64,000 bases of DNA from a virus, in the IMG/VR virus record IMGVR_UViG_3300042987_002978, positions 1 to 64,000 of that record, one strand, 5' to 3'. The translations under genes were made by a program, and so were the position numbers. This document shows, one piece after another, positions 607-20,004 of this stretch. Within the stretch, counting starts at the first letter, position 1, and each line of letters opens with the position of its first letter. Under the pieces are notes generated by a model that searched no databases, had not been told where the DNA came from, and saw only the letters and a program-made list of their open reading frames with translations.

Positions 607-672
607 TGCCCCTGCCACAAAAAATGGTGTTCCAGAATGTTCGGATTTATTTCGCGCTGAGCGTTCCCTTGG
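607..672 (+). repeat. conserved ~65-bp intergenic element, copy 1
   Basis: TGCCCCTG-N4-AAAAAATGGTGTTCC-N9-GGATTTATT-N~11-GTTCCCTTGG. Confidence 0.9.
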
Positions 673-734
673 ACCCGCCCGGGGGCGCGAGGTGGGCGCG
701 GCCTTACACCCCGCAAGGCCGCGCCCAGACGCTT

Positions 735-1007
735 CTATTGCGCTTGTGGCGCGTCTGTTCCGTATCCGTACTGAAACTCGTAGCACTGCTCTCCAAAGAA
801 CCCTTCTAGGAATCCGTTGGTGAACGCCATGAGTAGTTCATCGGTGAGTTGTGTTCCGTATTTCATTGCGAGCAAGACAAATGCGCCTGAGATGTGTTCC
901 TCAATTTCGCCCTGCTTGCCTTCGCGGGATTCGAGTTGGGCAAACTTACACCCAGCGTCAAACCCCATTTCGCCGACCCACGATGAGTCAGATGTGTATT
1001 CGTTCAT
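735..1007 (-). CDS. hypothetical early protein
   Basis: ORF with own promoter and RBS AAGGAG. Confidence 0.7.
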   Translation of the reverse strand: MNEYTSDSSWVGEMGFDAGCKFAQLESREGKQGEIEEHISGAFVLLAMKYGTQLTDELLMAFTNGFLEGFFGEQCYEFQYGYGTDAPQAQ

Positions 1008-1203
1008 TGTGTTTCTCCTTGCTGTTGTATGAGGTGGGATTACCTCATACCCTAATTATAGGTGTTTGTTAGACAGTCGTCAAGTCAGAACGCTCGATGT
1101 CACACATTTGTAACATTCGCCCGCTGCCTCTGCCGCCCGGGGTCGAATTGCCCCGCGGGGGAAGGAGGTAGAACCCGCGGGGCTTCTCGACTTTCGCCCG
1201 CCG

Positions 1204-1341
1204 TCAGTCCCACTCTCGGACTGTCGGCGCGGGCTTGCGCTTGTGGTGGATAGTCACCGCGCGCGTACGCAGTCCGTCGGCGTAAGCCTGTCGGTCTGCC
1301 GTGTTCCACGCTCGGCGTTTGTTGTGTTTGTTCTTGCTCAT
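1204..1341 (-). CDS. small basic protein, probably leaderless
   Basis: TTGCGA-N17-TATACT lies 6 nt before the ATG of MSKNKHNKRR. Confidence 0.6.
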   Translation of the reverse strand: MSKNKHNKRRAWNTADRQAYADGLRTRAVTIHHKRKPAPTVREWD

Positions 1342-1451
1342 AAGTTTAGTATAACACCTTTCTAGTGTTTTCGCAACTTGTCGGGGAAGTTTTGTTCCTG
1401 TCGCCCTGTGGCTGGCGGTGGGCGCTTCTCGTCCCACCGCCAGCCCAGCCG

Positions 1452-1649
1452 TTAGCGTACGGCTACGGCTTCTTGGGCGAACTTCCGCAGGACTTCCAGC
1501 AACTCATTCGTGTAGAAGTGAATGCTGGTCGTATTGCGGTGCTCGTCGGTAATCTCAACGGTCAGCGATGCGCTGTCGTAGGGACTGCCGTTGACGGTGA
1601 CTATTACGTCGTCCGCTTTTACGCCGTGTGCGTGTATGTAGTGGTTCAT
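1452..1649 (-). CDS. hypothetical early protein
   Basis: promoter 1691-1719, RBS AAGGAG. Confidence 0.7.
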   Translation of the reverse strand: MNHYIHAHGVKADDVIVTVNGSPYDSASLTVEITDEHRNTTSIHFYTNELLEVLRKFAQEAVAVR

Positions 1650-1824
1650 TTCTATTTCTCCTTGTTGTGTTGGTATTGCCTTATGTTATTAGTATAACAC
1701 ACTTTCGGCAGTTTCGCAACTATCCGAAAGAGATTTTTTCGCCCGCTTGCCTCTGCCGCCCTTCGGCGGCTCTCGCCCTGGGGCTAGGTGGTTGCCCACC
1801 TAACCCCATTATGGCGAGGGGGTG

Positions 1825-2070
1825 TTACACGGTTTCGGTGTAACCCTTCAAGGCAACGCCTTTACGAAGTTTGCCCATGCCGTGCTTATCCGACATTGAG
1901 CCCCAGCCGTTGCTAACTTGCTGGAATTCGTTGCCGTTCAGCACCGCCATCAGCGTGGAGTAGTGCCAGATTTCCCGACGGGTGTCGGATACCTGAACCG
2001 CTCGCCACGATGACGCTTTGAGGGTGCGCCCCGTTTTGATTTCGTTTGTGATTAGGTTTGTGATTTTCAT
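1825..2070 (-). CDS. hypothetical early protein
   Basis: promoter 2093-2121, RBS GGAGGA. Confidence 0.7.
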   Translation of the reverse strand: MKITNLITNEIKTGRTLKASSWRAVQVSDTRREIWHYSTLMAVLNGNEFQQVSNGWGSMSDKHGMGKLRKGVALKGYTETV

Positions 2071-2151
2071 TTTGTTTATTCCTCCTAGTTTTAGTATAGC
2101 ATACTGTTAGACATTTAGCAACCTGAGACGCGAATTTCTGCCTCCGGCCGC

Positions 2152-2190
2152 CCGCCCGTTGGGTGGGGCTTGCGCCCCACCCGTTCGGCG
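2152..2190 (-). terminator. GC-rich terminator hairpin (representative of the cassette terminators)
   Basis: GGGTGGGGC-TTGC-GCCCCACCC directly after a stop codon; similar hairpins at ~4899-4928, 6574-6601, 9086-9114. Confidence 0.6.
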
Positions 2191-2191
2191 C

Positions 2192-2434
2192 TTAGTCCAG
2201 TTGGGGCTTTGCGCTGGTGTCGGTGTACCGCTTACCGCCACGCTCACGGGCGGGGAATAGCGGGTACGACTTTCTGCCCGTATCGGGGTCGGTGTAGGTC
2301 ACGGGCAGGAATGCGCGGGTGCGTACTCCGTTGCGGGTGACGATAGTGGCGCCTTTGCGGGCGTACTTGCGAAGCCATGCCGTATCGGGCAGGTTCATTT
2401 CGGGCATCTCACCCGAAGCGGTTAGGGTAATCAT
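2192..2434 (-). CDS. hypothetical early protein
   Basis: promoter 2481-2509, RBS AAGGAG. Confidence 0.7.
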   Translation of the reverse strand: MITLTASGEMPEMNLPDTAWLRKYARKGATIVTRNGVRTRAFLPVTYTDPDTGRKSYPLFPARERGGKRYTDTSAKPQLD

Positions 2435-2607
2435 TTTGTTCTCCTTAGGTTCGGTGAGGCGGGATTACCTCACTACTTATACTGTATCACAAACTAGGCA
2501 GTTTCGCAACTCCTGAGGCATTATTTTTGTTTCATTTGTGTTACAAGTTATTCATCACTCTGAGTGGTCGTTTCTCACGCTCCGTGGCCGCCGGCTCCCG
2601 GCAATGC

Positions 2608-2676
2608 TGCCTCCGCCCCCCCGAAAAATGGTGTTCCTTCACAATTGGATTTATTCCGTATGCGGCGTTTCCTTGA
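2608..2676 (+). repeat. conserved ~65-bp element, copy 2
   Basis: GAAAAATGGTGTTCC-ttcacaatt-GGATTTATT...CGTTTCCTTG. Confidence 0.9.
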
Positions 2677-2799
2677 TGGCACCCGCCCGCGCGCGGCACT
2701 CTCCCACTATCTCCATTATGGCGTAGGGGTGTTACACGGTTATCTGTCGGGCGGGCGTTCACCTTAGGCTGTTGCCCACCCGACAGAACTCCGTTGTGC

Positions 2800-3081
2800 T
2801 TAGGCGTTGGCGTACAAGGCTTTGGATACCTCGTCGCTGGCGTGGCGTCGCGCGTCGTCTTCGGCAGTCTCGCCGTAGAACGCCTGCTTGTAGATACGCT
2901 TGCCAGCGTCGTAGATAGTCACCATCGTTGCCGGGATTACGAACCCGTCAGCGTAAGTCATGTCTGCCTCGTAGTAGCACACGGTGACTTCGTTATTCCA
3001 CCCTTTGGGGTAGGCTTCCGAACTCACTTCGCACCACGCGGTAGTCAGTCGCGCGCCTTTGGGCATTCGTTTGAGTGTCAT
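2800..3081 (-). CDS. hypothetical early protein
   Basis: start MTLKRMPK after RBS AAGGAG; promoter 3128-3156. Confidence 0.7.
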   Translation of the reverse strand: MTLKRMPKGARLTTAWCEVSSEAYPKGWNNEVTVCYYEADMTYADGFVIPATMVTIYDAGKRIYKQAFYGETAEDDARRHASDEVSKALYANA

Positions 3082-3238
3082 TCTGTTCTCCTTGCTGTTC
3101 GTGTGGGCGGGATTGCCCACTACTATTATTGTATCACACTTATTCTGTTCTCGCAACCTGAGACACAAACTTTTAGTTTCTGCCTCCGCCCGCCCTATCG
3201 GGTTGGTCGGGCAGGTTGCCCTGCCCGACCGTATCCCG

Positions 3239-3499
3239 TTAGGCGTTTGCGGGTTCGTTTATGCGGGTGACGTTCTCAGCGGGGAACGCAGGCTTCACCG
3301 TGTGGGCGAAGTAGCGACCGACCGATGCTTGCGTCAGCATTGGCACGACCAGCGTCAGCGGGCAACCCGTGTAGGCGTACTGACTGCCGTTCTGAAAGCC
3401 GACAAACAAAGTGCCGATACCGCTTTCGTCGTCGGAATAGAACGCCCATTTGGCGATTGCCGTGCTGTTCGGCGTTGTCTGGTGGATTGTGATTTTCAT
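3239..3499 (-). CDS. KTSC domain protein (second paralogue)
   Basis: NSTAIAKWAF...TLFVGFQNGSQYAY...ASVGRYFAHTVK. Confidence 0.7.
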   Translation of the reverse strand: MKITIHQTTPNSTAIAKWAFYSDDESGIGTLFVGFQNGSQYAYTGCPLTLVVPMLTQASVGRYFAHTVKPAFPAENVTRINEPANA

Positions 3500-3711
3500 T
3501 CTCATTACCTCTTTCATTGGGTTGTAGTGGGCGGGATTGCCCACTACTTAGATTGTAGCGACTGTTAGACAGATTTACAACCTGCCCGACAGTTTTTTAT
3601 TCGGTGGGTTGCCCCACTAATAATAGGATACCATACTGTTAGACACTTGTCTAGTCCTGAGTGTTACAAGTGTGTTACAAGGTTTGTGCTTGTTCGCACT
3701 TTCACAAACTT

Positions 3712-3777
3712 TGCCCCTGCCACAAAAAATGGTGTTTCCTAATTATTGGATTTATTCTGCGGCGGCGATTTCCTTGG
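3712..3777 (+). repeat. conserved ~65-bp element, copy 3
   Basis: TGCCCCTGCCACAAAAAATGGTGTTTCC...GGATTTATT...TTTCCTTGG. Confidence 0.9.
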
Positions 3778-3837
3778 CCTCCGGCCCGCTGGCGTTGCGT
3801 GCCGGCACCAAGGAGACGATGCCGGCACGCTTGCCAA

Positions 3838-3993
3838 TCAGAGGAATTCGATTGGGTCGCGGTCCGAGATTTCCGAGACATCGCAATCGCGTAAGCACGC
3901 TTGCGCTTCCCAGAAGTCTTCTTCCGTGAGTGGCGCGAGGCCTTCTTGCACATCTTCTGGCAAGTAGTCCCACCACGTTAGTTTTTTATCCAT
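3838..3993 (-). CDS. small acidic hypothetical protein (51 aa, not in ORF track)
   Basis: MDKKLTWWDYLPEDV...PIEFL; RBS AAGGGAG, promoter 4015-4043. Confidence 0.65.
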   Translation of the reverse strand: MDKKLTWWDYLPEDVQEGLAPLTEEDFWEAQACLRDCDVSEISDRDPIEFL

Positions 3994-4086
3994 TGGGTTC
4001 TCCCTTCTATTATCAGTGTATCACACTATTTTATGTTTTGCAACTATTTATGCCAATTTGGCCTCCGCCGGGCCGCGGGCTCGGCC

Positions 4087-4320
4087 CTACCTTTCGGTAG
4101 AGACGAGGCCAGCGGGCACCAGCGAATTCACCAGCACTAGGCCATAGAACGCGCCTGTAATCGCGTCTTTGACGAAGCAGTGGCCCATAGTGCCATTCTT
4201 TGGCGCGCCTGCACCGCCAGAGCATTTCACGACGAGCGTGCCGCGCTTTGGCTGGTGCTTGCGGGCATCAAAGATGTCCATGCCTACGGGTTCGTATCGG
4301 TACTGTCTTACTTTTGCCAT
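4087..4320 (-). CDS. hypothetical early protein
   Basis: RBS AGGAG, promoter 4369-4397. Confidence 0.7.
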   Translation of the reverse strand: MAKVRQYRYEPVGMDIFDARKHQPKRGTLVVKCSGGAGAPKNGTMGHCFVKDAITGAFYGLVLVNSLVPAGLVSTER

Positions 4321-4374
4321 TGGGTTCTCCTATTCCGTTGAGTAGAGCGGGATTGCCCTACTAATTACAGTGTA

Positions 4375-4695
4375 TCACACTATTTTAGTTTTGCCAACCT
4401 CTACGGCCTTGTCAAAGTCACATTCCTCAAACCCCGTCAAACGGCGCTCTGCGAGGATACGGTCACGCACAGCCTCACGGTCGGCGCTGTCACCGTCAAA
4501 CGGGAACAGCGGATTTGGGTCGGTGAGATGGGCGTTCACCGCACTCACTATTTCCATTTCGTAGGCGAATGGATACAGTGCGTCTGGGTGCTCCAGCGAA
4601 TAGAACTCACGGCAGTAGTCCGTGAATTCCTCTACTGATGTCCATTCTGGTATTTCGCGTCCAGCGTGCGGGCTGGTTCCTAGTGTGTGTGTCAT
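4375..4695 (-). CDS. hypothetical acidic protein, probably leaderless
   Basis: TATAAT 6 nt upstream of the ATG. Confidence 0.65.
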   Translation of the reverse strand: MTHTLGTSPHAGREIPEWTSVEEFTDYCREFYSLEHPDALYPFAYEMEIVSAVNAHLTDPNPLFPFDGDSADREAVRDRILAERRLTGFEECDFDKAVEVGKTKIV

Positions 4696-4804
4696 ACTCT
4701 CATTATAGGGACTGTTAGACAGATTAGCAACAGTATTAGTATTACAATCTGATTACAGCCGGCCGGCCACGCTGCGTGGTGGGCCACCACCGTGAGTGAA
4801 CCCT

Positions 4805-4876
4805 TGCCCCTGCTCCCGCGCAAGAAATGGTGTTCCAAGATAATCGGATTTATTCAGCGCACTGCGTTTCCCTTGG
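4805..4876 (+). repeat. conserved ~65-bp element, copy 4
   Basis: AAGAAATGGTGTTCC-aagataatc-GGATTTATT...CGTTTCCCTTGG. Confidence 0.9.
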
Positions 4877-4934
4877 CCTCTGCCCGGCGGCGGGTAGTGG
4901 CTGGTGGGGAGGAGAGCCCCACCAGCCGAACCGC

Positions 4935-5345
4935 TTAGAGGTAGCGAGCGACTGCCCCATACGAGGAAGTACGGACATACTCCTCGTCGGAGAGTTCCAG
5001 CACGCGAATTGCGTTGCTGAGTTCCTCTACTGCTGCCCTGTTGGAGTGCTCGCAGAAACTATTGTCCTTCTTGGGAAGGGTAATTTTGTGCGAGAAGGTG
5101 ACGGTCACTTCCTCAAACTCGTTCGTGTCGTTACGGTACGAGTAGGGGAAAGACACTTCCTTCGGGGTCAGTTTGCCTGACTTGACGAGTGCCGCCACCG
5201 ACTTCTTGATTTCGGCGGTTGCCTTCGTTCGCGCCTTCTCTGCGTTGGCGTAGTCCTTGGCTTCCTGTTCTTTCTTGGCTAGTGCTGCTTTGAGTGCCGC
5301 GAGCAATTTCGCCTTCGTCACTCTCACATTTACTGTCTTACTCAT
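4935..5345 (-). CDS. hypothetical protein with Lys/Ala-rich coiled-coil N-terminus
   Basis: RBS GAAAGGA, promoter 5402-5430. Confidence 0.75.
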   Translation of the reverse strand: MSKTVNVRVTKAKLLAALKAALAKKEQEAKDYANAEKARTKATAEIKKSVAALVKSGKLTPKEVSFPYSYRNDTNEFEEVTVTFSHKITLPKKDNSFCEHSNRAAVEELSNAIRVLELSDEEYVRTSSYGAVARYL

Positions 5346-5432
5346 TATGTTGTATTCCTTTCCTGTTTGGTTTCTAGTGGTGCGGTTGCCCCACTAGTAT
5401 TATTGTATCACACGCTTTGGAGTTTCGCAACC

Positions 5433-5621
5433 TTACGGCGTGGGAGTGTTGTGGAGTTCGTACTCCAAATTCAGTTGTGCCGCTGCCCGCCGCGCTTCTT
5501 GCTCGGTGGCAAACACTTGTTCGCAGTTCTGCGGCTCGTTCTCGTCGCAGAACCACAGTTCCCAGCCCTCGCGGGTCGGGAATACTTGGTAGTTGTATGG
5601 GTACGGGTGTTTTGTTCTCAT
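5433..5621 (-). CDS. hypothetical protein, leaderless
   Basis: promoter 5628-5656 directly before the ATG. Confidence 0.6.
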   Translation of the reverse strand: MRTKHPYPYNYQVFPTREGWELWFCDENEPQNCEQVFATEQEARRAAAQLNLEYELHNTPTP

Positions 5622-5756
5622 AGTTCTAGTGTATCACACTTTCGGGAGTTTCGCAACCTTCTAGCGTTTCGCGGCACTCTTGGCAGAGGCCCCCGCTGAG
5701 GGCCGACCATTCGTCGCCGCAGTTCGTGCAGGCCTGCTCGTTGCCAAATTCTGGGT

Positions 5757-6104
5757 TCATCGCCAGCAACTCGCGCGGTAGGCGACTTCGGCTAGTTGGT
5801 CGCAGTAGACCTCGCGCTGCTCGAACTCCACCACGCCGCTATTGCGGTCTGCGCCGCGCGTAATGCGACGGACACGGCGCACAATATAGGTGTCGTTCCA
5901 GTCGAGGATTACCTCGACGGCTCGCGAAGTGCCGCAGTGAAGCCACGCGCCGATAATGCGGTTTTGGTCGGTGCTGTCGCGCAACGAAGCCCAAACGCCG
6001 CCGCAGATAGCGAGCGTGTTCATTCTGCCGATTTGCTCGATTATTTCGTGAGCGTTGCAGTCTCGACCTTCGCGGTCAATAATTGCCATTGTGTAAGTAG
6101 TCAT
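5757..6104 (-). CDS. hypothetical phage protein
   Basis: start MTTYTMAII after RBS GAAAGGA; promoter 6142-6170. Confidence 0.7.
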   Translation of the reverse strand: MTTYTMAIIDREGRDCNAHEIIEQIGRMNTLAICGGVWASLRDSTDQNRIIGAWLHCGTSRAVEVILDWNDTYIVRRVRRITRGADRNSGVVEFEQREVYCDQLAEVAYRASCWR

Positions 6105-6264
6105 TGTGTTTCCTTTCCTGTTGGTATTGCCTGATAATCTAAGTGTATCACACTCACGCGAGTTTTGCAACTCTCCGCGAGAAATTCTGCCTCCGGCCCG
6201 CCGCTTGCGGCGAGTTTGGGCTGGTGGGGGAAGGAGGGAACCCCACCAGCCGCACTCGTTCTGT

Positions 6265-6492
6265 TTACGCTTTCACGACTGCGCTACGGAGTAGAGCCAC
6301 CCACTCGTCGTAATCGCAGGTGATGCGGTCGGGCTCTGTGCCGCAGGGGTAGCAAGCCGCCTGATGCCAGACCTTAGCGTCGCACTCCATACACACGGGG
6401 CAGTCGTCTCCGAAAGCACCCCATGAGTGAGTAGCGAAGTTCGCATCTCGTTGTTCCTTTGTTCCCTGAAAGGGAACGGGGAAGTTTGCCAT
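6265..6492 (-). CDS. small Cys-rich (putative Zn-binding) protein
   Basis: CPVCMEC...CYPCG; RBS AGGAG. Confidence 0.6.
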   Translation of the reverse strand: MANFPVPFQGTKEQRDANFATHSWGAFGDDCPVCMECDAKVWHQAACYPCGTEPDRITCDYDEWVALLRSAVVKA

Positions 6493-6609
6493 TGTCTTGT
6501 CTCCTGTCTTGGGTTGGTATTGCCTTGTACCCTAAGTGTATCACACTTTCGGGAGTTTCGCAACTCGGTAGTGGTCGGGCAGGTAATCCCACCTGCCCGA
6601 CCGACCGAA

Positions 6610-6834
6610 CTAGACCCGAACCTTTGAGGTCGTGGTCTCGGTGACTTCCACCTCGCTGAATGCCTTAGCAAGGTCGAGCACCTTCTCGCCATTGGCAGGG
6701 CTGAGCAACACGGTGAGTTCGCCAATGCGAACTTCCAAGTTGTTGCCGCTGACCCTGACCTTGATTTGGTCAATGGCAGTGTTCCACGAATAGAGGCTTG
6801 CGCTCTGTCGTGGCTTTGCTTGTACGGTATCCAT
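6610..6834 (-). CDS. hypothetical early protein
   Basis: start MDTVQAK; promoter 6878-6906. Confidence 0.6.
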   Translation of the reverse strand: MDTVQAKPRQSASLYSWNTAIDQIKVRVSGNNLEVRIGELTVLLSPANGEKVLDLAKAFSEVEVTETTTSKVRV

Positions 6835-7037
6835 TCTGTTCTCTTTCTGTTCGGTGGGGCTTGTTCCCCACAACTCAATAGTACCACATTGTTAGACAGA
6901 TTACAACCTTTGCGGCGAGAAAGATTTATTTCTTTCTAAGTTGCTTTCTGCGTCAGTTTGTGCTACAATGGTAGTAGCGGGCAAGATACGAGCAGCCCTG
7001 TGCCGGTCGCCCGGGGCTGCCCCTGAGAGGCAGTTCC

Positions 7038-7107
7038 TGCCTCCGCCCTCCGCAAAAAATGGTGTTCCTTGAATATTGGTTTTATTCGGCGCGGCGATTT
7101 CCCTTGG
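7038..7107 (+). repeat. conserved ~65-bp element, copy 5
   Basis: CAAAAAATGGTGTTCC-ttgaatatt-GGTTTTATT...TTTCCCTTGG. Confidence 0.9.
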
Positions 7108-7158
7108 GCCTGATGGCCCTGGCGCGCGGAAAGGAGGGAAGGCGCGCCAGGACCTAGG

Positions 7159-7335: not shown

Positions 7336-7352
7336 TGTGTTTACCTTTCTAT

Positions 7353-8810: not shown

Positions 8811-8972
8811 TACTCTAAGTGTATCACATCTTTGTCGCTTTCGCAACTCTTTGCGATACTTTCTTTCGGGCTTGCGCCCATATCTATACTGTACCATACT
8901 GTTAGACAGATTACAACTCGTCAATATTACAATTGTGTGACAGGCCAAGACAGCCCGGGGCTTGCCCCGGTC

Positions 8973-9038
8973 TGCCCCTGCCACAAAAAATGGTGTTCCA
9001 AGAGAATTGGTTTTATTCTGCTCACGCCGTTCCCTTGG
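8973..9038 (+). repeat. conserved ~65-bp element, copy 6
   Basis: TGCCCCTGCCACAAAAAATGGTGTTCC-aagagaatt-GGTTTTATT...CGTTCCCTTGG. Confidence 0.9.
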
Positions 9039-9121
9039 CCCCTGCTTCCGCCCGGGGGCGGGTTCGCATCCGCGGGCGAACGCCTGTTCGGGTGGGGGTT
9101 CGCCCCACCCGAACCTTGCGG

Positions 9122-10339: not shown

Positions 10340-10360
10340 TTATCCACAGGCTGTGGATAA
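10340..10360. promoter_or_regulatory. inverted pair of perfect DnaA boxes
   Basis: TTATCCACA-GGC-TGTGGATAA. Confidence 0.7.
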
Positions 10361-10391
10361 CTTTTGCCCGGTGGCCCCTGCCCTTGGGTTT

Positions 10392-10458
10392 TGCCCCTGA
10401 CCCAAAAAATGGTGTTCCAGAAATATCGGATTTATTTGGGTTCAGGCCGTTCCCTTGG
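10392..10458 (+). repeat. conserved ~65-bp element, copy 7
   Basis: TGCCCCTGACCCAAAAAATGGTGTTCC-agaaatatc-GGATTTATT...CGTTCCCTTGG. Confidence 0.9.
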
Positions 10459-10593
10459 GCCTGGCCGGAGGGCAGCGGGGCCGCTGGCGACAGAAAGGAA
10501 AGAACGCCAGCGGCCCACGGGCCGACGGTTGGGACACAAGGAAGGAAAGACCCAACCGCGCGAGTCACTGTACTCGCATGATTTTTTGTTTTG

Positions 10594-12273: not shown

Positions 12274-12495
12274 TTAGTACTTTCCAATGTCTAGGAAGCC
12301 CGTACCGTTGAGTTCTGGGTCGGCAGCGACTAGCGCGTATGTCCCGTCCGTGAACTCAATGACAGTGGTCGGATTGCTTGACTCAAACCACATCAGGTCG
12401 TCCATCTCCACTTTCGTGACTGGACGAACGCTAGAAACAGTTTTCCCAACAAGTGATTGGGCGTAGTGCTTCATGGCGATTGTCGGGCGACTCAC
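12274..12495 (-). CDS. hypothetical protein
   Basis: overlaps the HTH gene stop; ADPELNGTGFL motif. Confidence 0.65.
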   Translation of the reverse strand: MSRPTIAMKHYAQSLVGKTVSSVRPVTKVEMDDLMWFESSNPTTVIEFTDGTYALVAADPELNGTGFLDIGKY

Positions 12496-12719
12496 TTGCC
12501 GATTCCCTTCATGAGGTCTGCTGGGCGCACGTCGAGTGCGATACAGAGACGGAAGAAGGTGTCGAGGTTCGGGGAAAAGTGCCCGTTCTCGATGCGATTC
12601 ACGGTCTTGCGGTCGATGCCTGCTGCTTTGGCGAGGTCATCCTGTGAGATACCTGCGTCAATGCGCAACTGCTTCATTCGGCTGCGAACCGTGTTCTGTT
12701 GGGTATTGGTGGTTGTCAT
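12492..12719 (-). CDS. XRE-family helix-turn-helix regulator
   Basis: MKQLRIDAGISQDDLAKAAGIDRKTVNRIENG. Confidence 0.9.
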   Translation of the reverse strand: MTTTNTQQNTVRSRMKQLRIDAGISQDDLAKAAGIDRKTVNRIENGHFSPNLDTFFRLCIALDVRPADLMKGIGK

Positions 12720-12834
12720 TGTTATTGCCTTTCTTTGGTTGGTTATTGCTTATGTTCTAAGGATACCACATAATGGACACGGACACAACCTCTTCTGAGG
12801 AAAATTTTGCCGGTGACCAGGCCGGCAGTGAAAC

Positions 12835-12901
12835 TGCCCCTGGCACAAAAAATGGTGTTCCTTGGAATTTGATTTAATTTCGCTTTTGCCGTTCCCTTAG
12901 G
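12835..12901 (+). repeat. conserved ~65-bp element, copy 8
   Basis: TGCCCCTGGCACAAAAAATGGTGTTCC...TGATTTAATT...CGTTCCCTTAG. Confidence 0.9.
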
Positions 12902-12930
12902 CTGGGTGTGTCCAGCCCGAGGGACGTGGA

Positions 12931-13098: not shown

Positions 13099-13189
13099 TG
13101 CTTTCTTCTTTCTATGTTGGTTGGTATTACATCTTCATTATACATGTTTGTCTAACCATTCACAACCTCTGCGCGCACTTCTGTGCGCG

Positions 13190-13442: not shown

Positions 13443-13448
13443 TATTGA

Positions 13449-14126: not shown

Positions 14127-14258
14127 TATGTTCTCTTTCTGTTGAGTTGGTATTGCTTACACTTACATTGTATCACTTATCTGGCTTGTTTACAACCTTC
14201 CTGCCGACAATAACTGCCGTCAGATAGACGATAAACATCACCAGGAGAAGAAGGCCCT

Positions 14259-14492
14259 TCATACGTACGGCCATCCCGCAACATCGTTTGTGGGGTCGCA
14301 CCATTCGGACGGACTGACCTGTTTCGTCTGACCATACTGAAGATGGTATTCGCCCCATGCCTGACGGTCTAAGTCAGACATGGTTTCAGTCCAACACTCC
14401 CAGTCTTTTGCCAACCAGTCGTTTGCCCTGATGCGCAGTGGCGGATTCGAGTAGTAGGTACCACTCTCTATGTCAAGCCAGATGGTAGCCAT
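14259..14492 (-). CDS. hypothetical protein
   Basis: start MATIWLD, coupled to the upstream stop. Confidence 0.55.
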   Translation of the reverse strand: MATIWLDIESGTYYSNPPLRIRANDWLAKDWECWTETMSDLDRQAWGEYHLQYGQTKQVSPSEWCDPTNDVAGWPYV

Positions 14493-14722
14493 TAGAAGAA
14501 ACGCTCCGAAATGGCTGCCGACATCTCGCAGAAGTCTGCGATGTGCTCGACCAAGTCCCAATCGCTGAGTTCATGGTCGTCCTCGACATCCTTGATTGCC
14601 AAGATGCCGTCGAGCACGAATCCTGCGAAGCCATCCTCCATCTCGTCGGTCGGCTTAGCCGAGCCTTCTGCGACGGAGATAACTGCGCCGAGGTATCTCT
14701 GGTTCCATTCGTCTAGGGTCAT
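14492..14722 (-). CDS. hypothetical acidic protein
   Basis: RBS GAAAGG, promoter upstream. Confidence 0.65.
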   Translation of the reverse strand: MTLDEWNQRYLGAVISVAEGSAKPTDEMEDGFAGFVLDGILAIKDVEDDHELSDWDLVEHIADFCEMSAAISERFF

Positions 14723-14900
14723 TGTGTTGCCTTTCTGTTGAGTTGTGTTCATAACTAGATTGTACCACATATTTCGTCGTATGACAACCTGCGGTGGGGT
14801 TTGGGATGCAATCCCTCCCCACCACAGGCCGCTAGTGGCTGGGTCATGTTGCCGTGTAAATAAGAGGGGATACGCGCAGCCAAGCCCTAGCCATTAGCGA

Positions 14901-15365
14901 CTACCACGATGAGTGGTAGTAGAACTCCCACTCGTCAGGCATAGACAGACAGTTGTCAATGACGGCAACCGTGTGCTTGATGTCGTGGAAATAGTATTCG
15001 TCGTACTCGTACGAGCCGAAGAAGAAGCCCTGTTGAGTTGGCAGTTCTTCGTCTGCCACTGCTGGCTGGAGAAGAACCTTCTGGCACAAAGCCTTCAGTT
15101 CTTCCAACTTCTCACGCCCGACATAGGCGTAGCGACAGTCGTCCTCGCCGTTCTGGCAGTTGTCCACGAACCATTGGTGAATGGCGTTCGCCTTTCGCCA
15201 ATAGCCGATGGAGACTTCCAACTGAATACTCGGAAGGTCGGTTTTCACATGCTTTGCGATACCCGACTTCTTCAGGAGTTCGTGGAACTCTTTTTTATTC
15301 TCTTCTGTTCGCCACTCCGCACCTGAGTAATACTTCTTGGCGGAAAGGTACATATCTAATCCCAT
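14901..15365 (-). CDS. conserved phage hypothetical protein (MGLDMY...YWRK family)
   Basis: MGLDMYL, YWRKANAIHQWF, LPTQQGFFFGS, YYHSSW. Confidence 0.8.
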   Translation of the reverse strand: MGLDMYLSAKKYYSGAEWRTEENKKEFHELLKKSGIAKHVKTDLPSIQLEVSIGYWRKANAIHQWFVDNCQNGEDDCRYAYVGREKLEELKALCQKVLLQPAVADEELPTQQGFFFGSYEYDEYYFHDIKHTVAVIDNCLSMPDEWEFYYHSSW

Positions 15366-15446
15366 AGTGTTTTATCTTTCTGTGTTGAGTTGGTTATTGC
15401 TGTTACTTAGATTGTATCACTTATCTTCGGACTTTGCAACCTCTGG

Positions 15447-15683
15447 TTAGAGGATGCCCACTTCCTGCCACTTGTGGAGTTCTTTAGCGGAGAGGAAAGA
15501 CGGTGCTTTCCCTTCTACTTCTTCGGCATCCCACGGCTTGTCCCAGTCAAGAGGACAGATGTCCACGACTTTAGAACTATCGAAGTTGCCCCATGCTTTC
15601 TCAAGGGCATCTTCCACGGACTCCGCCTCAATCAACCACTGAAGGTCAAGGTCAACGGTCTGCCTGATAATAAATTGTTTCAT
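15447..15683 (-). CDS. hypothetical protein
   Basis: own promoter and structured leader. Confidence 0.65.
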   Translation of the reverse strand: MKQFIIRQTVDLDLQWLIEAESVEDALEKAWGNFDSSKVVDICPLDWDKPWDAEEVEGKAPSFLSAKELHKWQEVGIL

Positions 15684-15814
15684 TGGTTTCTTCTTTCTGT
15701 TGAGTTGATGTTGGTGTGGGGACGGGCTTTTTGGTCTAGAACCTCAACCCTTTACAGCAGACGATGTCATCTGCCCACAACTACATTGTACCACATTGTA
15801 GCACACTTGGCAAC

Positions 15815-16120
15815 CTACGAAACCTCGATTTCGTAGAAAGCCTCGGATTCTGCCGGCTTGTAGGTCACGAAATACCCGATGCGGTTGACGAGGTGGTAGC
15901 CGTTGGTGACTATCGTGCCGTCATCGCCGTCGATGTATGTCCAGACATTGTCAGGCTTGGCCTTGACATACGCAAGAACAAAGTCCAGTTCTTTCCCGTA
16001 TGTCTCAAACATAAGTCCGTAATCGCCGTCATTAAACGACGCATCTTTGTCAAAGACATTGACGATTGGCTCGTATTTCTCGCACCACTTGTCAAAGGGC
16101 ATCTTGATAAGAACGGTCAT
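15815..16120 (-). CDS. conserved hypothetical phage protein
   Basis: FETYGKEL...VWT..D...GYHLVNRIGYFVT. Confidence 0.7.
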   Translation of the reverse strand: MTVLIKMPFDKWCEKYEPIVNVFDKDASFNDGDYGLMFETYGKELDFVLAYVKAKPDNVWTYIDGDDGTIVTNGYHLVNRIGYFVTYKPAESEAFYEIEVS

Positions 16121-16287
16121 TCGTCGTCCCCGATTTCTTCGTAGTCTTCCACTTCCCAAGTGATTTCGCTTCGCTTGGCGTTGGTGAACATGTCTGCGAA
16201 CAAATCCATAGCCTCGTCTTCGGTCTCTGCCTCAACGAAGTCGGAGAAGTACGCCGACAAGTGATAACGGTATTTTGTTTTACTCAT
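16117..16287 (-). CDS. small acidic hypothetical protein
   Basis: start MSKTKY; VEAETEDEA motif. Confidence 0.6.
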   Translation of the reverse strand: MSKTKYRYHLSAYFSDFVEAETEDEAMDLFADMFTNAKRSEITWEVEDYEEIGDDE

Positions 16288-16343
16288 TTGGTTGTCTTTC
16301 TGTGATTGGGTTATGATTACATTGTAGCATACTCTAGCATGCT

Positions 16344-16649
16344 TTACAACTTGTGCCACCGGTATTCTTCGTTTTTATTCACTACATCTTGGCTACAAGT
16401 ACCGACTACTTCCAGCGTGTCGCCGTCAATGACTCGGTAGCAGGTCTCGCACAGCCAGTGCTTGCCGTCCCACTCTCCGATAGTCGGCTCGCAGCGTTCG
16501 CCTATTTCGCTACAAGAGGCGAAGCCGTCTCCGTCTGGTTTGTTGCCGCAGCGGCACACCCACCAGTCGCTTGCTTCCTCAATGATGTATTCACGAGTAA
16601 GAGCAGGGTGGGCGAGGAGCATGTCCGTCCAGTGAGGATTATTTTCCAT
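16344..16649 (-). CDS. Zn-finger-like hypothetical protein
   Basis: CRCGN...C...CETC. Confidence 0.65.
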   Translation of the reverse strand: MENNPHWTDMLLAHPALTREYIIEEASDWWVCRCGNKPDGDGFASCSEIGERCEPTIGEWDGKHWLCETCYRVIDGDTLEVVGTCSQDVVNKNEEYRWHKL

Positions 16650-16887
16650 TCTTCGCCGCCCAGTACGCTTTTGCTTCTGCTTCTTGGTCGTCAGTACCGT
16701 CCGAGAGAACTATCTCAAACTGGTGAAGGCCATTGATGATGCGGAAGGTCTCCGCATTGGCAGGGCTGTCCCAAGTGAGGGCATGATGGAGGGAACTGGT
16801 GGTTCCGCCTCGGTCTCCCAAGAGTTTTGCCGCGAATCGCCGGTATCCCTTGTCGTTTGTTTTCTGTAATAGGTATTGTGTTGTCAT
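16639..16887 (-). CDS. hypothetical protein, leaderless
   Basis: TTGACA-N17-TATACT just before MTTQY. Confidence 0.6.
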   Translation of the reverse strand: MTTQYLLQKTNDKGYRRFAAKLLGDRGGTTSSLHHALTWDSPANAETFRIINGLHQFEIVLSDGTDDQEAEAKAYWAAKNGK

Positions 16888-17001
16888 AACCCAAGTATAC
16901 CGGATGTCAGACAACTTGTCAACCTTTTTCCGAGATTGTTCAGAATTTCACAAACACTGTTAGGTATTTTATTTGAGACACTTTTGTCTTTTTGTCTCAT
17001 C

Positions 17002-17069
17002 TGCCCCTGTGCCAAAAAATGGTGTTCCAGATATTTCGGATTTATTTTGTGCGGAGCCGTTCCCTTAGG
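17002..17069 (+). repeat. conserved ~65-bp element, copy 9
   Basis: TGCCCCTGTGCCAAAAAATGGTGTTCC-agatatttc-GGATTTATT...CGTTCCCTTAGG; overlaps the stop of 17065-17301. Confidence 0.9.
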
Positions 17070-17301
17070 CCTGGTCGACGTCCCGCACCACGCACAGTGC
17101 GCCGGTCTCCCGGATGCGCCGGCGCAGCAGGTTGGTTTCCTCCTGCGGTATGCAGATGTGCGCGATGATGGACCAGCCGTTGCCGCGCTTGGCCTCGTGC
17201 AGGTGAACATCGGCGGTATCGTCGTGCTCTCGAATAAGATTTGCCAGCGTCACGCCCTCACGGTACGTGTTCACAGAAATACTCAGAGTGAGTGGCTTCA
17301 T
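17065..17301 (-). CDS. hypothetical protein
   Basis: ORF within an operon. Confidence 0.55.
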   Translation of the reverse strand: MKPLTLSISVNTYREGVTLANLIREHDDTADVHLHEAKRGNGWSIIAHICIPQEETNLLRRRIRETGALCVVRDVDQA

Positions 17302-17310
17302 GCCAGCACC

Positions 17311-17553
17311 TTACCCCACCCAGCGCCCAAAGACGGTGTAGCCGTCTTCTTCGCGCCGGACAATCCACTCGGTACCCGGGTAACGTTTTTTATATTGCTG
17401 TGCTTTGGAGTGGCCGGTGCGCGCGATGTTGCCGGTACAGTACACCGCCCACTCGCCTGGTTTCTCCTTGAGTTTGTCCACGAAGTTGGCGACCTGAAAC
17501 GGGCTGCCGTTCTTCGGGCCCGGCGGCTGCCGGAATTCAGTTTTCTTAGCCAT
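17311..17553 (-). CDS. hypothetical protein
   Basis: LKEKPGEWA...VFGRWVG, typical small actinophage protein. Confidence 0.65.
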   Translation of the reverse strand: MAKKTEFRQPPGPKNGSPFQVANFVDKLKEKPGEWAVYCTGNIARTGHSKAQQYKKRYPGTEWIVRREEDGYTVFGRWVG

Positions 17554-18049
17554 TTAGTTTCTCTCTTGCTCTGTCTTCTTTGGGGTCACGGACTTCCCAC
17601 TGGCCGCGCTGAATCTTGCGGAAGTACGGTGATGTCTTCACGTAGTTCAGTACGGTCTGGTAGGAGAATCCTGATATCTCCACGAGTTGCTCGGTCGTCA
17701 CCTCGTGGTATGTGTTCTTCTTGGCCCACTCTTCGAGGGCCTTCCACTTGTCCGCGCGCTTTACTGGCTTGGCTTCCTCGGCCTCGACCAGTTTTTGTTT
17801 TCCCAGAAACGACGGAATAAGTATTTCTATGACGTTGCGAGAAAGCGAGTACTCGCCCATGAACCGCACAGGATTGCCCTGACTGCCGCGCGCCTGCCAC
17901 GCCTGGATGACGTAGAGGCCCCGGACGAGTTCTGCGATGCGCTGCTGCTCGTCACGGGGGACCTTGAAGGCAGTCCCGTGCCGCTCGACGGCGCTCTTCC
18001 AGAGGTCGGCTTGGTAGTTGTGTACGACTTCGTCACTGATTGTTTTCAT
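17546..18049 (-). CDS. hypothetical protein with possible C-terminal winged helix
   Basis: start MKTISDE after GGGGAGG; TTEQLVEISGFSYQTV. Confidence 0.65.
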   Translation of the reverse strand: MKTISDEVVHNYQADLWKSAVERHGTAFKVPRDEQQRIAELVRGLYVIQAWQARGSQGNPVRFMGEYSLSRNVIEILIPSFLGKQKLVEAEEAKPVKRADKWKALEEWAKKNTYHEVTTEQLVEISGFSYQTVLNYVKTSPYFRKIQRGQWEVRDPKEDRAREKLNG

Positions 18050-18291
18050 ATAGTGCCTCCCCATGAGTAAACACCGTCGATTAAAGCCATTTTCCAGAAG
18101 GCATCTCCCGACAATCCGCCGAGACACACCTGACAAACCCACGCGCCGCTTTCCTGCTCGATGAGAACAGGCCTGGGCTGCGCGCACGAATCGCACTCAC
18201 TGCCTGGTTCGTGCCCGACAGTCACGGTGTATGTGACGAGCGGGGTCGACTTACGCGAGTGACGACTGGGCCTTTTCTTATGGCGGGCCAT
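18046..18291 (-). CDS. Zn-ribbon hypothetical protein
   Basis: CDSC...WVCQVC; start uncertain. Confidence 0.5.
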   Translation of the reverse strand: MARHKKRPSRHSRKSTPLVTYTVTVGHEPGSECDSCAQPRPVLIEQESGAWVCQVCLGGLSGDAFWKMALIDGVYSWGGTI

Positions 18292-18573
18292 ATACGCATC
18301 CATCCTTTCAAGAGTTGGAACGGGGTTGGGAAATAGTTGAATCGCAGGACTTTCCAAATCGATGCGTGAACCGCAGCAATTGGATAAATGATTGCCCACA
18401 TGTACATGCCAAAGGCCAGTGGCCAAGGCAGGCCCATGGCGGGCGAATTGAATGCGAACGTCGCGATGATTCCGTACTGGAACCATCTATTCGCAAAAAG
18501 TTTTTTCAGGAAGTTACCTCCATTGAGTTGTTATCACATTCTATCATATGGGTGTTACGGTCGAATTCCAACG

Positions 18574-18783
18574 TCAGACGTAAAGGTCCTTCCCGTTGCA
18601 GGAAAGCCAGTGCTCCAGCCAGTCGGTGGCCTGCCGGTACATGACGCCTTCGTACATCGGGTCAAAGTCGCCGCCGGAAATCTCTGGGAAACTCTCCACG
18701 ACGCTCGCCCAGAAGTGTTCGAGCGCTCTATCGACCGCTGCCTCAAGCCTGGCTTCCATCTCGATTTTGAGTATTGATGTCAT
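18574..18783 (-). CDS. hypothetical protein
   Basis: FWASVVESFPEISGGDFDP; RBS GAAAGG. Confidence 0.65.
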   Translation of the reverse strand: MTSILKIEMEARLEAAVDRALEHFWASVVESFPEISGGDFDPMYEGVMYRQATDWLEHWLSCNGKDLYV

Positions 18784-18958
18784 TGTCTTGCCTTTCATTA
18801 GGTTATACCTTGATTGTATCATGCTCTACCACACGTCACAACCTCCCGTGAAAGATTTCTGAGAAAAATTTCTTCCGGTAAAATGTTGGTTTCCGCGCCC
18901 GCTGCCGGTATAATTGATATCAACATGATGAATAAATACTCTTCGTTATTTCATTTTC

Positions 18959-19025
18959 TGCCCCTGTCCAAAAAAATGGTGTTCCAGCCAGAATGGTTTT
19001 ATTTTGCGCACCGCCGTTTCCTTGA
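18959..19025 (+). repeat. conserved ~65-bp element, copy 10
   Basis: TGCCCCTGTCCAAAAAAATGGTGTTCC-agccagaat-GGTTTTATT...CGTTTCCTTGA. Confidence 0.9.
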
Positions 19026-19034
19026 GGCCCTCTG

Positions 19035-19568
19035 ATGGCCCGGCCGCGCGACAGTCAACGCAGCCGGCTCTACGCGTCCGAGTGGGAGGTGTTCGGATGG
19101 TCAAAGGAGAAGTTCCGAGACATGGGGGAACTGGAGGAGTATCTCTGGAAAGTTTTAGAGCATCATGTGGTCCAGCGAAAATACCAAATGGCGCGGGACA
19201 TCGTATCTGGCACGCAGAGACTGAAGATATCCAACGGAGCCGGACACCGCAGGGCCTTGACCATACGACAGGAAGACAAAATCATCGTCTCATTCCCGCG
19301 CAAGATGCGCAGTGAGTGGGTGGTCGTGCACGAAATCGCCCACGTACTCACTCCTGCTGACGTCGCCGGACACGGAAGAGAGTTCTGCCGCACTTATCTG
19401 GAACTCGTAGGACTATTCTTCGGCGTCGAAACAAGAAACAAACTTAAGGCCGCGATGAAAAAACATAACTGCAAGTACTCAAAGACACACACACGCTGGA
19501 AAGGACCCATTCCTCAGGAGGAAAAAGACGCAATGCTCGCTAGATTGTTGGCCGGACGGAACAAATGA
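19035..19568 (+). CDS. HEXXH metallohydrolase, TIGR04338/Rv0185-like (SprT-like)
   Basis: RDSQRSRLYASE N-terminus; VVHEIAH...HGREFCRTYL. Confidence 0.8.
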   Translation: MARPRDSQRSRLYASEWEVFGWSKEKFRDMGELEEYLWKVLEHHVVQRKYQMARDIVSGTQRLKISNGAGHRRALTIRQEDKIIVSFPRKMRSEWVVVHEIAHVLTPADVAGHGREFCRTYLELVGLFFGVETRNKLKAAMKKHNCKYSKTHTRWKGPIPQEEKDAMLARLLAGRNK

Positions 19569-19942
19569 CGAATCACAAGTGGAACATCCTCAACATCATG
19601 CGGTTCTATAACCGAATCGGCAAGCAATTCAACGCCAAGGTGTACCTGGACTTCATCACACCGCACGAAGGTTCGAACGTAAAGAACAAGAAAGCACCGC
19701 CGCTGTCTGAAATCTATACATACATCCGTCGATACATCGCCAACGGATGGTGTGAGAGAGCCGGAGACAACGTCGTGATGACTCAGAAGGGTCTGATGGC
19801 CCTGATGGAGTGGGAAAAGAAGACCGCACTCGCACGCGCAGAGAAGCGCGAGCAGGATTATCTCGCGAAAGGGTTCGCGCGACCGAATACGCGCGGGCCC
19901 GACGGAAGTTATTTACCGGGAACACGCAAACCGCGCAAATAA
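19565..19942 (+). CDS. hypothetical protein
   Basis: ATGA-coupled ORF. Confidence 0.65.
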   Translation: MTNHKWNILNIMRFYNRIGKQFNAKVYLDFITPHEGSNVKNKKAPPLSEIYTYIRRYIANGWCERAGDNVVMTQKGLMALMEWEKKTALARAEKREQDYLAKGFARPNTRGPDGSYLPGTRKPRK

Positions 19943-19968
19943 TCCGGCGGTCAATCCGTCCGTCCGTC

Positions 19969-20004
19969 AAAAAAATGGTGTTCCAGACGGAATGGATTTA
20001 ATTT
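19969..20004 (+). repeat. conserved element, copy 11 (truncated)
   Basis: AAAAAAATGGTGTTCC-agacggaat-GGATTTAATT; lacks the TGCCCCTG head and GTTCCCTTGG tail. Confidence 0.8.

Follow-up and report, generated by a model that had tools for sequence, protein, structure and literature searches.

A four-box intergenic element repeated on one strand between small early genes of a large freshwater siphovirus and its relatives: a possible phage-specific promoter

Host RNA polymerase is retargeted to phage-specific promoters in several phages, including the middle promoters of T4 (MotA/AsiA) and SPO1 (gp28) and the novel early promoters of the Streptomyces phage phiC31. Another kind of repeated regulatory site is the stoperator of Cluster A mycobacteriophages, a single site of 13-14 bp that is bound by the immunity repressor of these temperate phages and occurs genome-wide, with dozens of copies per genome. 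In T4-type myoviruses, the promoter-early stem-loop (PeSL) joins a stop hairpin to a restart signal; the promoter is a host sigma-70 early promoter, the stem-loop lies inside the conserved repeat, and the repeats recur, all pointing the same way, in a plastic region among small early genes that are mostly unknown (PMC2839356, PMC4122927). Cluster DJ Gordonia phages (Vardy) carry a 50-bp intergenic motif in the non-structural part of the genome, which includes a canonical TATAAT -10, runs as far as the start codon and has been proposed to regulate expression (PMC9671010). By analogy, the terminator-promoter cassette of the PeSL appears to be the closest known counterpart of the element described here.

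The window, that is, the whole 64,000-nucleotide stretch analysed, belongs to a viral contig of 104.9 kb. Its source is a large, uncultured siphovirus from freshwater, and the two WhiB-like genes of the phage imply that the hosts are probably actinobacterial. A sequence-only reading had listed 11 copies of the element, all on the same strand, and both a count of the core and a covariance model bear this out. The core AAAAATGGTGTTYC occurs 11 times on the plus strand of the window (starts at 620, 2624, 3725, 4823, 7055, 8986, 10405, 12848, 17015, 18972 and 19971) and never on the minus strand, and a sequence-only covariance model recovers 11 of the 11 copies with E values of 1e-13 to 1e-22. Searching for a 15-mer with up to three mismatches gave 14 matches, compared with 2.5 expected from shuffled sequence. 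Because nearly all genes lie on the minus strand, the element is to be read as the reverse complement. The co-orientation described earlier is therefore right as to the shared strand, but it matches transcription only in the reverse complement, the gene strand having been overlooked. The copies are as follows.

Copy 1: 19951..20018, minus strand; between convergent genes; array-opening variant; model R1 E 8e-13.
Copy 2: 18953..19028, minus strand; in a divergent intergenic region, adjoining a plus-strand gene start at 19035; E 1.4e-20.
Copy 3: 16996..17072, minus strand; E 1.2e-20.
Copy 4: 12830..12903, minus strand; E 4.6e-18.
Copy 5: 10386..10462, minus strand; upstream of a DUF932 gene (Pfam match); E 6e-21.
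Copy 6: 8967..9042, minus strand; E 9e-22.
Copy 7: 7036..7111, minus strand; E 4e-18.
Copy 8: 4805..4880, minus strand; E 6e-19.
Copy 9: 3706..3781, minus strand; E 1e-18.
Copy 10: 2606..2677, minus strand; E 4e-17.
Copy 11: 601..676, minus strand; E 7e-22.

The statement that no copy lies past 20.1 kb holds for the window but not for the contig, in which a twelfth copy was found outside the window (contig 104620-104695, minus strand). All 12 contig copies thus share one strand, and nothing comparable occurs elsewhere in the contig; at 22439-22505, within a plus-strand gene, the opposite strand gives a weak match (E 3e-4) that is probably due to chance. At the contig junction, about 5 kb of sequence may be missing. 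The copies are restricted to a small-gene arm of ~20-21 kb, where about 45 small genes accompany them.

The element is present in at least 14 related IMG/VR contigs, at least 10 of which hold arrays of 4-13 same-strand copies. This search used a two-box pattern, a loose 15-mer scan having returned mostly chance matches. The source samples of these contigs include IMG 3300020548, 3300020557, 3300023179, 3300010354 and 3300005805. Across ten related contigs, 79 of 79 copies lie on one strand, and the element strand is the gene strand in all four genomes checked (this contig, G001, G002 and G004). In the more distant G008 (43% portal identity) the element is absent, and a different short repeat is present. 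Genome-wide scatter in both orientations, which had been named as evidence against a distinct element, was not seen, and related phages conserve it. No match was found among GenBank phages by megablast (1-20 kb) or by blastn with one copy, and Rfam at E<=1 returned nothing on the element, with a sub-threshold 6C RNA match beside a copy; the earlier impression that this is not a described element is in line with these searches. A pattern search in 185,579 genomes of bacteria and archaea gave 23 single matches in unrelated phyla and none in Actinobacteria, and it offered no pointer to the host. Since this is about the level of chance (~35 by a back-of-envelope estimate), the element is not a host motif.

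Read in the gene sense, the element spans ~75 bp and consists of four boxes, A (CCAAGGGAAC), B (AATAAATCC), C (TGGAACACCATTTTTT) and D (CAGGGGCA); over 40 nucleotides are invariant, in boxes whose spacing is rigid. The B-C spacing is identical in every copy that was aligned and inspected, while the A-B spacer varies by about ±3 nt and the C-D spacer from 0 to 5 nt; the consensus and the pattern of conserved blocks and variable spacers proposed from the letters hold in these alignments. ACCAT(A/T)TT is the best-conserved part, being kept in variants without GGAAC and in a relative whose portal identity is only 63%, and the frequency of T or A after CAT differs between genomes. GGAAC occurs twice as a direct repeat, at a distance of 34 bp, on either side of an A/T-rich centre. 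A TCC-N9-GGA dyad, noticed earlier, is present, but it comprises just 3 bp, and the more distant relative G006 has not kept it. The copy at 19969 had been called truncated, and box D is indeed missing from it; however, it also has a degenerate box A and a shorter A-B spacer, so it is not a simple truncation, and the same variant stands first in the arrays of G001, G002 and G004. A coding reading, in which an ATG opens box C on the plus strand, was ruled out because the length of the A-B spacer shifts out of frame.

A polar, protein-type DNA site had been preferred over an RNA fold, and the absence of consensus structure on either strand agrees with that view. An RNA element on the sense transcript, serving as a processing, stabilising or antitermination site, would be transcribed if the hairpins that precede the copies leak, and it would offer A/U-rich single-stranded stretches between stable stems, as often in RNase E-type sites. 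We give this reading almost no weight: no consensus pairs were predicted in 44 copies, the mean folding z is about -0.5 on both strands, Rfam gave no match, and so many invariant nucleotides in rigid boxes are unexpected for a nuclease site.

The element also proved distinct from SigA promoters and hairpins, as had been proposed. No TTGACA/TANNNT pair with a 16-18 bp spacer occurs inside it, the closest SigA fit being TAAATC-17-CAT(T/A)TT, which matches at 2/6 and 3-4/6 positions. A consensus promoter scan found no same-sense (minus-strand) promoter inside any copy; one antisense (plus-strand) SigA-type match at 3701-3730 overlaps copy 9. An ECF sigma promoter was rejected because neither GGAAC box is followed by GTT or CGT after 16-18 nt, the sequence there being non-matching or variable. 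A sigma-54 promoter has GG and GC spaced by 10 nt (TGGCAC-N5-TTGC), whereas TGGAAC is followed in all copies by TTTT where GC is required; actinobacterial hosts, moreover, are not known to carry sigma-54. Two further candidates were discarded: an intrinsic terminator, since the T run of box C has no preceding stem and is interrupted by A in relatives, and an integron attC site, since the GGAAC boxes are direct rather than inverted and neither strand folds.

Every copy is intergenic and preceded by a strong GC hairpin (best 50-nt dG -23.4 vs -14.5 for background, p 2.5e-12). These hairpins lack U tracts, copy 1 excepted, and their sequence is not conserved. SigA-type promoters are nearly limited to this arm, with almost none before middle and late genes, and most units have a consensus-grade SigA promoter 50-250 bp downstream of the element; among 54 copies, 16 are not followed by any recognisable SigA-type promoter in the next 275 nt. 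The element stands at about half of the gaps between small early gene units. Its absence from the other half or so of the hairpin-to-promoter junctions in the arm, together with the absence of copy 6 from this position in the closest relative, G010, in a pairwise alignment, indicates that it is dispensable at any single place.

This arrangement resembles the PeSL in combining a stop hairpin with a restart-type signal, in its single orientation among small early genes and in having copies similar enough to act as exchange points. Unlike in the PeSL, the conserved part fits no SigA, ECF or sigma-54 pattern, the hairpins are not part of the conserved sequence, separate SigA promoters follow downstream, and the breakpoints between relatives appear to lie mostly away from the element; the phages differ as well, in that T4-type myoviruses are replaced here by a large siphovirus of actinobacterial hosts. 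The Cluster DJ motif is likewise repeated and intergenic in the non-structural part of an actinophage, but in the present element a canonical -10 is missing, and 100-470 nt separate it from the next start codon.

Several pieces of evidence suggest that the element could be a phage-specific promoter at which the host RNA polymerase is retargeted by a phage factor: (i) The rigid B-C spacing, combined with flexible A-B and C-D spacers, resembles the constraints on sigma-type promoters. (ii) A span of ~75 bp is the size of a polymerase footprint. (iii) The copies are polar, all on one strand, and occupy intergenic sites after a hairpin. (iv) In the arrays examined, the second copy lies in a divergent gap with no co-directional upstream gene, where initiation fits and termination does not. 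(v) At the 16 copies that lack a nearby SigA-type promoter, the element is possibly the sole promoter. The conservation of ACCAT(A/T)TT, the absence of a fold and of helical phasing with the next SigA-type promoter, the specificity to phages and the presence of two WhiB genes count in favour of this reading as well. Against this, no copy precedes the SigA-poor middle and late genes, which seem needier, and the first copy of each array would drive transcription antisense to one or two genes of reverse orientation. Moreover, most units already have SigA promoters, so that a further class serving the same early genes calls for an explanation, for example a temporal switch. We favour the promoter reading tentatively, at somewhat less than an even chance. 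Of the four roles offered by the sequence-only reading, a site for a phage polymerase or sigma factor is the best fit, although the searches turned up neither a sigma nor an RNA polymerase gene of the phage.

In the mechanism we propose, the module would come straight after the hairpin at which the preceding unit stops and would restart transcription of the next small-gene unit, and it would be read by the host RNA polymerase only once a phage protein alters promoter recognition. The -10/-35 assignment is our own fit, made from the sequence 17 bp upstream of the A/T core. In this layout, CAT(T/A)TT in box C would be the -10 element, with A at -11 and T at -7; box B would occupy the -35 place (-37 to -29) at a 17-bp spacer; TGGAAC would fall at -20 to -15; positions -58 to -46 (about -52), which upstream activators or alpha subunits bind, would hold box A; and box D would be the start site, +1. 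Because the copies are near-identical, they may also be sites for duplication or exchange of units, as a side effect rather than a primary role. A promoter of this kind would share with the T4 MotA/AsiA, SPO1 gp28 and phiC31 classes its many near-identical copies, the lack of a normal -35, a usable A/T-rich -10 and, putatively, dependence on a phage factor. It differs from them in its unrelated sequence, in its four boxes over ~75 bp and in being confined to genes that also have host-type promoters.

The candidates for a retargeting factor are WhiB-like proteins, a family that binds SigA region 4, or a small region-4-like HTH protein. The relevant regulator genes of the window are as follows.

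23531..24094, minus strand: WhiB-like gene, 187 aa; Pfam WhiB, 52.9 bits; candidate trans factor.
24763..25047, minus strand: HTH protein, 95 aa; weak similarity to sigma-70 region 4; second candidate factor.
12492-12719: XRE-type HTH regulator gene; first gene downstream of copy 4; PHROG match.

The 187-aa WhiB-like protein has a conserved C-terminal extension of ~80 aa, which matched no solved fold. Its gene is present in five of five relatives searched, with 27 full-length homologues, and its structural model matches WhiB1/WhiB3-SigA region 4 complexes (TM ~0.74, target-normalised). At the syntenic place of the 95-aa HTH gene, relatives give PF08281 matches below cutoff, and the nearest atlas cluster of this protein is viral, with Sigma70_r4_2 in 12% of members. 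Searches for sigma-70 region 2 and for a T7-type RNA polymerase found neither; the T7-type family was silent in all 14 bacterial and archaeal control genomes too, which makes that negative weak. No homologues of MotA or AsiA were found, and PDB sequence searches with three neighbouring unknown proteins gave nothing informative. The link between the element and WhiB is circumstantial. It is rather improbable that a phage WhiB-like protein creates the promoter class by docking on SigA region 4 and swapping -35 recognition for contacts with the A/T-rich box B and the sequences beside it, which would be a first example; the polymerase would then switch from the SigA-type early promoters of the phage to these modules.

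The same placement could instead reflect a polar array of sites, itself no promoter, to which a DNA-binding protein of the phage attaches, either a stoperator-like roadblock or insulator backing the weak, U-less hairpins, or a long-range silencer or activator loading site for the SigA promoters. Such an array would account for the strict orientation just past the hairpins and for the multi-box composite with its spaced GGAAC repeats and A/T-rich centre. It is also consistent with the service of most units by ordinary SigA promoters and with the variable distances from copies to the next promoter, as in long-range sites. Proteins to bind it are available, the phage carrying several ParB-domain, HTH_36 and other HTH proteins besides the XRE regulator. 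However, the second copy of the arrays has no co-directional upstream transcription to block, a roadblock upstream of a unit's own SigA promoter cannot silence that unit, and there is no helical phasing between element and next SigA-type promoter (R 0.03). ParB sites, moreover, are normally short palindromes, and the ParB genes here sit in an apparent DNA-modification operon. We regard a binding array as unlikely but credible. The lack of periodicity also led us to reject a reading as an activator site placed upstream in phase with the following SigA promoter. Like Cluster A stoperators, the copies are asymmetric, keep one orientation to transcription and lie in short intergenic gaps of an actinophage; unlike them, they are ~75 bp long, multi-box and confined to one arm, and among the proteins scanned there was no integrase and no immunity repressor was identified. 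The stoperator-like repressor site suggested earlier, as well as the recombination site, finds little support.

Recombination as the primary role would make the copies PeSL-like portable homology patches for duplication, deletion and exchange of units between co-infecting phages. Paralogous families 48 and 50 recur mostly as the first gene past a copy, as unequal exchange predicts, some gene blocks stand in different order among relatives, and the genome-dependent T or A after CAT hints at homogenisation or co-evolution. Yet the arrays are largely syntenic at 65-90% identity, and the indels relative to G010 and G004 do not extend from one copy to another; a 1.2-kb difference from G010, for instance, spans promoter to gene end. 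In both of these genomes the element has been gained or lost without its accompanying genes. That four boxes and an unchanged B-C distance persist down to 63% portal identity points to protein recognition rather than mere homology. A primary role in recombination is thus distinctly improbable, and the earlier suggestion of a site for swapping gene blocks has little support, as gene gain and loss between relatives appears mostly not to break at the copies.

The shared strand and the clustering in one arm, beside a probable genome end, would also suit some other DNA transaction, such as strand-specific nicking (as in T5), ejection pausing, replication priming or packaging. Very little probability attaches to these roles: there is no linked nickase or related gene, placement follows transcription-unit boundaries rather than distance along the genome, and positive evidence for nicking, ejection, priming or packaging is absent, so that nothing points towards the ejection or packaging guide proposed from the letters.

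Transcription programmes are little known in large actinophages, above all in uncultured freshwater ones. A signal of 75 bp and four boxes that is shared across the clade and is clearly of another type than host promoters provides a handle for locating transcript starts, and it can be used as bait for a factor that reprograms the host polymerase. The element also adds a non-sigma-70 example of the recurring design in which a stop hairpin and a restart signal are placed among small early genes. If it is a factor-dependent promoter, it could possibly serve as an orthogonal expression switch for actinobacteria, and if the factor is the WhiB-like protein, the system would be an actinophage sigma-appropriation system analogous to T4 AsiA/MotA.

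The 15-mer core occurs 11 times in the window, always on the plus strand, which confirms the eleven co-oriented copies of the sequence-only reading at the positions it had given; with up to three mismatches there are 14 matches, compared with 2.5 expected from shuffles. The window covers bases 1–64000 of an IMG/VR viral contig of 104,851 bp; searching that whole contig added one further copy, the twelfth, at 104.6 kb. All 12 contig copies lie on one strand, and the opposite strand has none. In a self-trained ORF call the minus strand carries almost all contig genes, and the biologically relevant reading of the element is therefore its reverse complement, as follows:

Box A, reverse-complement sense: CCAAGGGAAC(GGC)
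A–B spacer: about 8–11 variable nt
Box B, reverse-complement sense: AATAAATCC
B–C spacer: 8 variable nt
Box C, reverse-complement sense: TGGAACACCAT(T/A)TTTT
C–D spacer: 3–5 nt
Box D, reverse-complement sense: CAGGGGCA

The proposed pattern of constant blocks and spacers of variable sequence is borne out by alignments of the copies. The B–C spacing is constant in every copy inspected; the A–B and C–D spacings are flexible. The element model also gives a weak, partial match on the opposite strand (window 22439–22505, +; E 3e-4), which falls within a 2OG-Fe(II) oxygenase gene and is probably due to chance.

Using a sequence-only covariance model trained on 12 copies, we found element arrays of 4–13 copies in ten related contigs, on one strand per contig, for a total of 91 copies including those of our own contig. 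A two-box pattern scan detected the element in 14 IMG/VR contigs without stray matches. One relative shares only 63% portal identity and still has the boxes, with small changes (GAGGAAACGG, AAATAAAATCA, TGGAACACCATTTTCT). The best-conserved part is ACCAT(A/T)TT, which is retained in a few copies from which GGAAC is gone. The element was not found among 50,697 GenBank phage records and no Rfam family matches it, in line with the earlier reading, which had not recognised it as a described element, and a scan of 185,579 prokaryotic genomes gave just 23 single matches (0 in Actinobacteria; rough chance estimate ~35). On the basis of these absences and chance-level matches, the element is a clade-specific phage signal. 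A more distant relative (G008; 43% portal identity) is without the element; its first 11 kb (L249 596–10644) instead hold at least nine occurrences of a 12–13 nt word, CCAGATTCACAC with a variant form CCAAATTCACAC.

The phage is a large siphovirus with a tape measure protein of 1644 aa, a portal that shares 38% identity with its Gordonia phage GMA6 counterpart, TerS and TerL genes, and further genes for an SNF2 helicase, ParB-domain proteins, RusA, a class II ribonucleotide reductase and a carbamoyltransferase. Its two WhiB genes indicate a host among Actinobacteria. Along the direction of transcription, the gene order is terminase, structural, tail, DNA metabolism and finally a small-gene arm of ~21 kb, whose roughly 45 small genes are mostly unknown and which holds every element copy. 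The closest relative, G010, is colinear at 84–90% nucleotide identity and spans both ends of our contig; by this comparison ~5.3 kb may be missing at the junction, where G010 has no element copy, and our contig probably represents an almost complete assembly that is circularly permuted. The contig start adjoins a C10 homopolymer (window 1–60). Beyond the window, a ~1-kb GC-rich repetitive stretch with no ORF called (contig 102160–103175; 2160–3175 of L011, a part of the same contig) separates the small genes from the terminase side and includes a tRNA-Thr(TGT); the genome end or an origin may be located there. Perfect DnaA-box nonamers (TTATCCACA) occur at window 10340–10360 and 532–540 and at contig 102865–102873, 104556–104564 and 90854–90862, with an inverted pair directly downstream of the 10405 element copy.

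Within 1–20 kb the gene strand (minus) carries 31 consensus-grade SigA-type promoters (TTGnnn-17-TAnnnT), often TG-extended, and their frequency in the rest of the 105-kb contig is close to chance. This concentration suggests that it is the small-gene arm that unmodified host polymerase reads, which would hence make it the early region. Several of these promoters end 4–7 nt ahead of the start codon, which implies that several arm mRNAs are leaderless. Units usually run from a gene stop through a strong GC hairpin that has no U tract to the element, then often a second hairpin, one to three SigA-type promoters, and the gene. Hairpins are strongly enriched upstream of the element (mean best 50-nt dG −23.4 vs −14.5 background, p 2.5e-12) and not enriched downstream (p 0.08); of the arm's hairpin-to-promoter junctions, about one in two lacks the element. 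The next SigA-type promoter follows at 76–267 nt without helical phasing (Rayleigh R 0.03 at 10.5 bp), and none was found within 275 nt of 16 of 54 copies. One promoter subset on the minus strand (~1074, 2112, 3570, 3644, 4720, 6897, 7992 and 8907) shares a palindrome in the −35/−10 spacer, either CTGTCTAACAG or just the core GTCTAACA, which looks like an operator for a repressor; a second class shares TTGCGAAA and TGTGATACAST.

Action at the RNA level is very improbable: in keeping with the earlier preference for a protein footprint over an RNA fold, RNAalifold gave 0 base pairs over 44 aligned copies (sense strand), essentially none was predicted for the antisense strand, and single-sequence folding z-scores average −0.5. 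A coding sequence was also rejected because spacer-length changes shift the frame.

The element is polar and intergenic, is of the protein-type class of signals, is about as large as a polymerase footprint, and combines one rigid spacing with two flexible ones; it would most simply be a promoter, here a phage-specific one. Its core is A/T-rich, followed by a G-rich stretch and CA, and is placed behind a stop hairpin. In the fit we propose, CAT(T/A)TT would be the −10 hexamer, TGGAAC would lie at −20 to −15, box B at −37 to −29, leaving a spacer of 17 bp to the hexamer TAAATC, and box A at −58 to −46; the box D CA would coincide with the expected start site. The boxes match no SigA, ECF or sigma-54 pattern, so recognition would require a phage factor. 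Neither sigma region 2 nor a T7-type polymerase was found in five contigs, all incomplete; the polymerase family also went unmatched in 14 of 14 control genomes. Two WhiB-like genes are present:

Window 23531–24094, minus strand: WhiB-like gene, 187 aa
Contig 101004–101195, plus strand: WhiB-like gene

G001, a related contig, likewise has two, and the other three relatives searched have one each. The first gene, a few kb upstream of the array, is kept in 5 of 5 relatives searched, and its product has 27 full-length metagenomic homologues (172–203 aa, mostly 184–187). A conserved, well-predicted helical C-terminal extension of about 80 aa gave no structural match. PDB entries for WhiB–SigA complexes show WhiB-family proteins seated at the −35 position on SigA region 4, so these proteins offer a route to altered −35 recognition. 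The model of the 187-aa protein (pLDDT 76) can be superposed on the SigA region 4-bound forms of WhiB1, WhiB3 and WhiB7; that it acts on the element is our conjecture. A second candidate is a 95-aa protein whose HTH resembles region 4.

Several observations hold the promoter reading to slightly below an even chance. (i) Good SigA promoters already serve most of the same units. (ii) The element is not in front of middle and late genes, although those lack SigA promoters. (iii) In every array, transcription from the first copy would run antisense into reverse-oriented genes. This copy is a variant that lacks box D and has a degenerate box A; it is placed between convergent genes, right behind a canonical hairpin that carries a T run. 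The second copy occupies a divergent gap, adjoining the start of a reverse-oriented gene, and both placements recur in G001, G002 and G004. The one or two genes they bracket (window 19035–19942, +), one weakly SprT-like, have the same arrangement in these three relatives. A polar roadblock, insulator or silencer site is an unlikely alternative.

The nearest described system is the promoter-early stem-loop cassette (PeSL), a terminator-promoter cassette of T4-type phages (PMC2839356, PMC4122927), which the element resembles in design and genomic setting. The promoter type differs, and breakpoints appear not to be concentrated at the repeat. Stoperators share the polarity but differ in size, distribution and lifestyle, and the Cluster DJ 50-bp motif differs in having a canonical −10 (PMC9671010).

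Gene-family maps of four genomes show broadly syntenic arrays, with copies at equivalent positions preceding families 14, 18, 30, 36, 37, 41/42, 45, 48 and 50. The earlier suggestion that the element could be a recombination site for swapping gene blocks has little support: genes are gained and lost within units, the family 41 gene changes unit from genome to genome, and in G004 the element alone is missing between families 44 and 45. In G010, unrelated sequence beginning exactly at the box A 5′ edge replaces the c8986 copy and its downstream leader. A primarily recombinational role is improbable; service in other DNA transactions is less probable still. Families 48 and 50 are recurring paralogous small genes, mostly first after a copy, in our phage, G001, G002 and G004:

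Window 43–414: family 48/50 paralogue
Window 3239–3544: family 48/50 paralogue
Window 2192–2434: family 48/50 paralogue
L011 4009–4386: family 48/50 paralogue

Their recurrence behind copies suggests occasional copy-to-copy exchange, and element-plus-gene units may have been tandemly duplicated. Judging from synteny, within-unit gene changes and element-only loss, the element appears to behave as a portable regulatory module rather than as an obligatory border of mobile cassettes.
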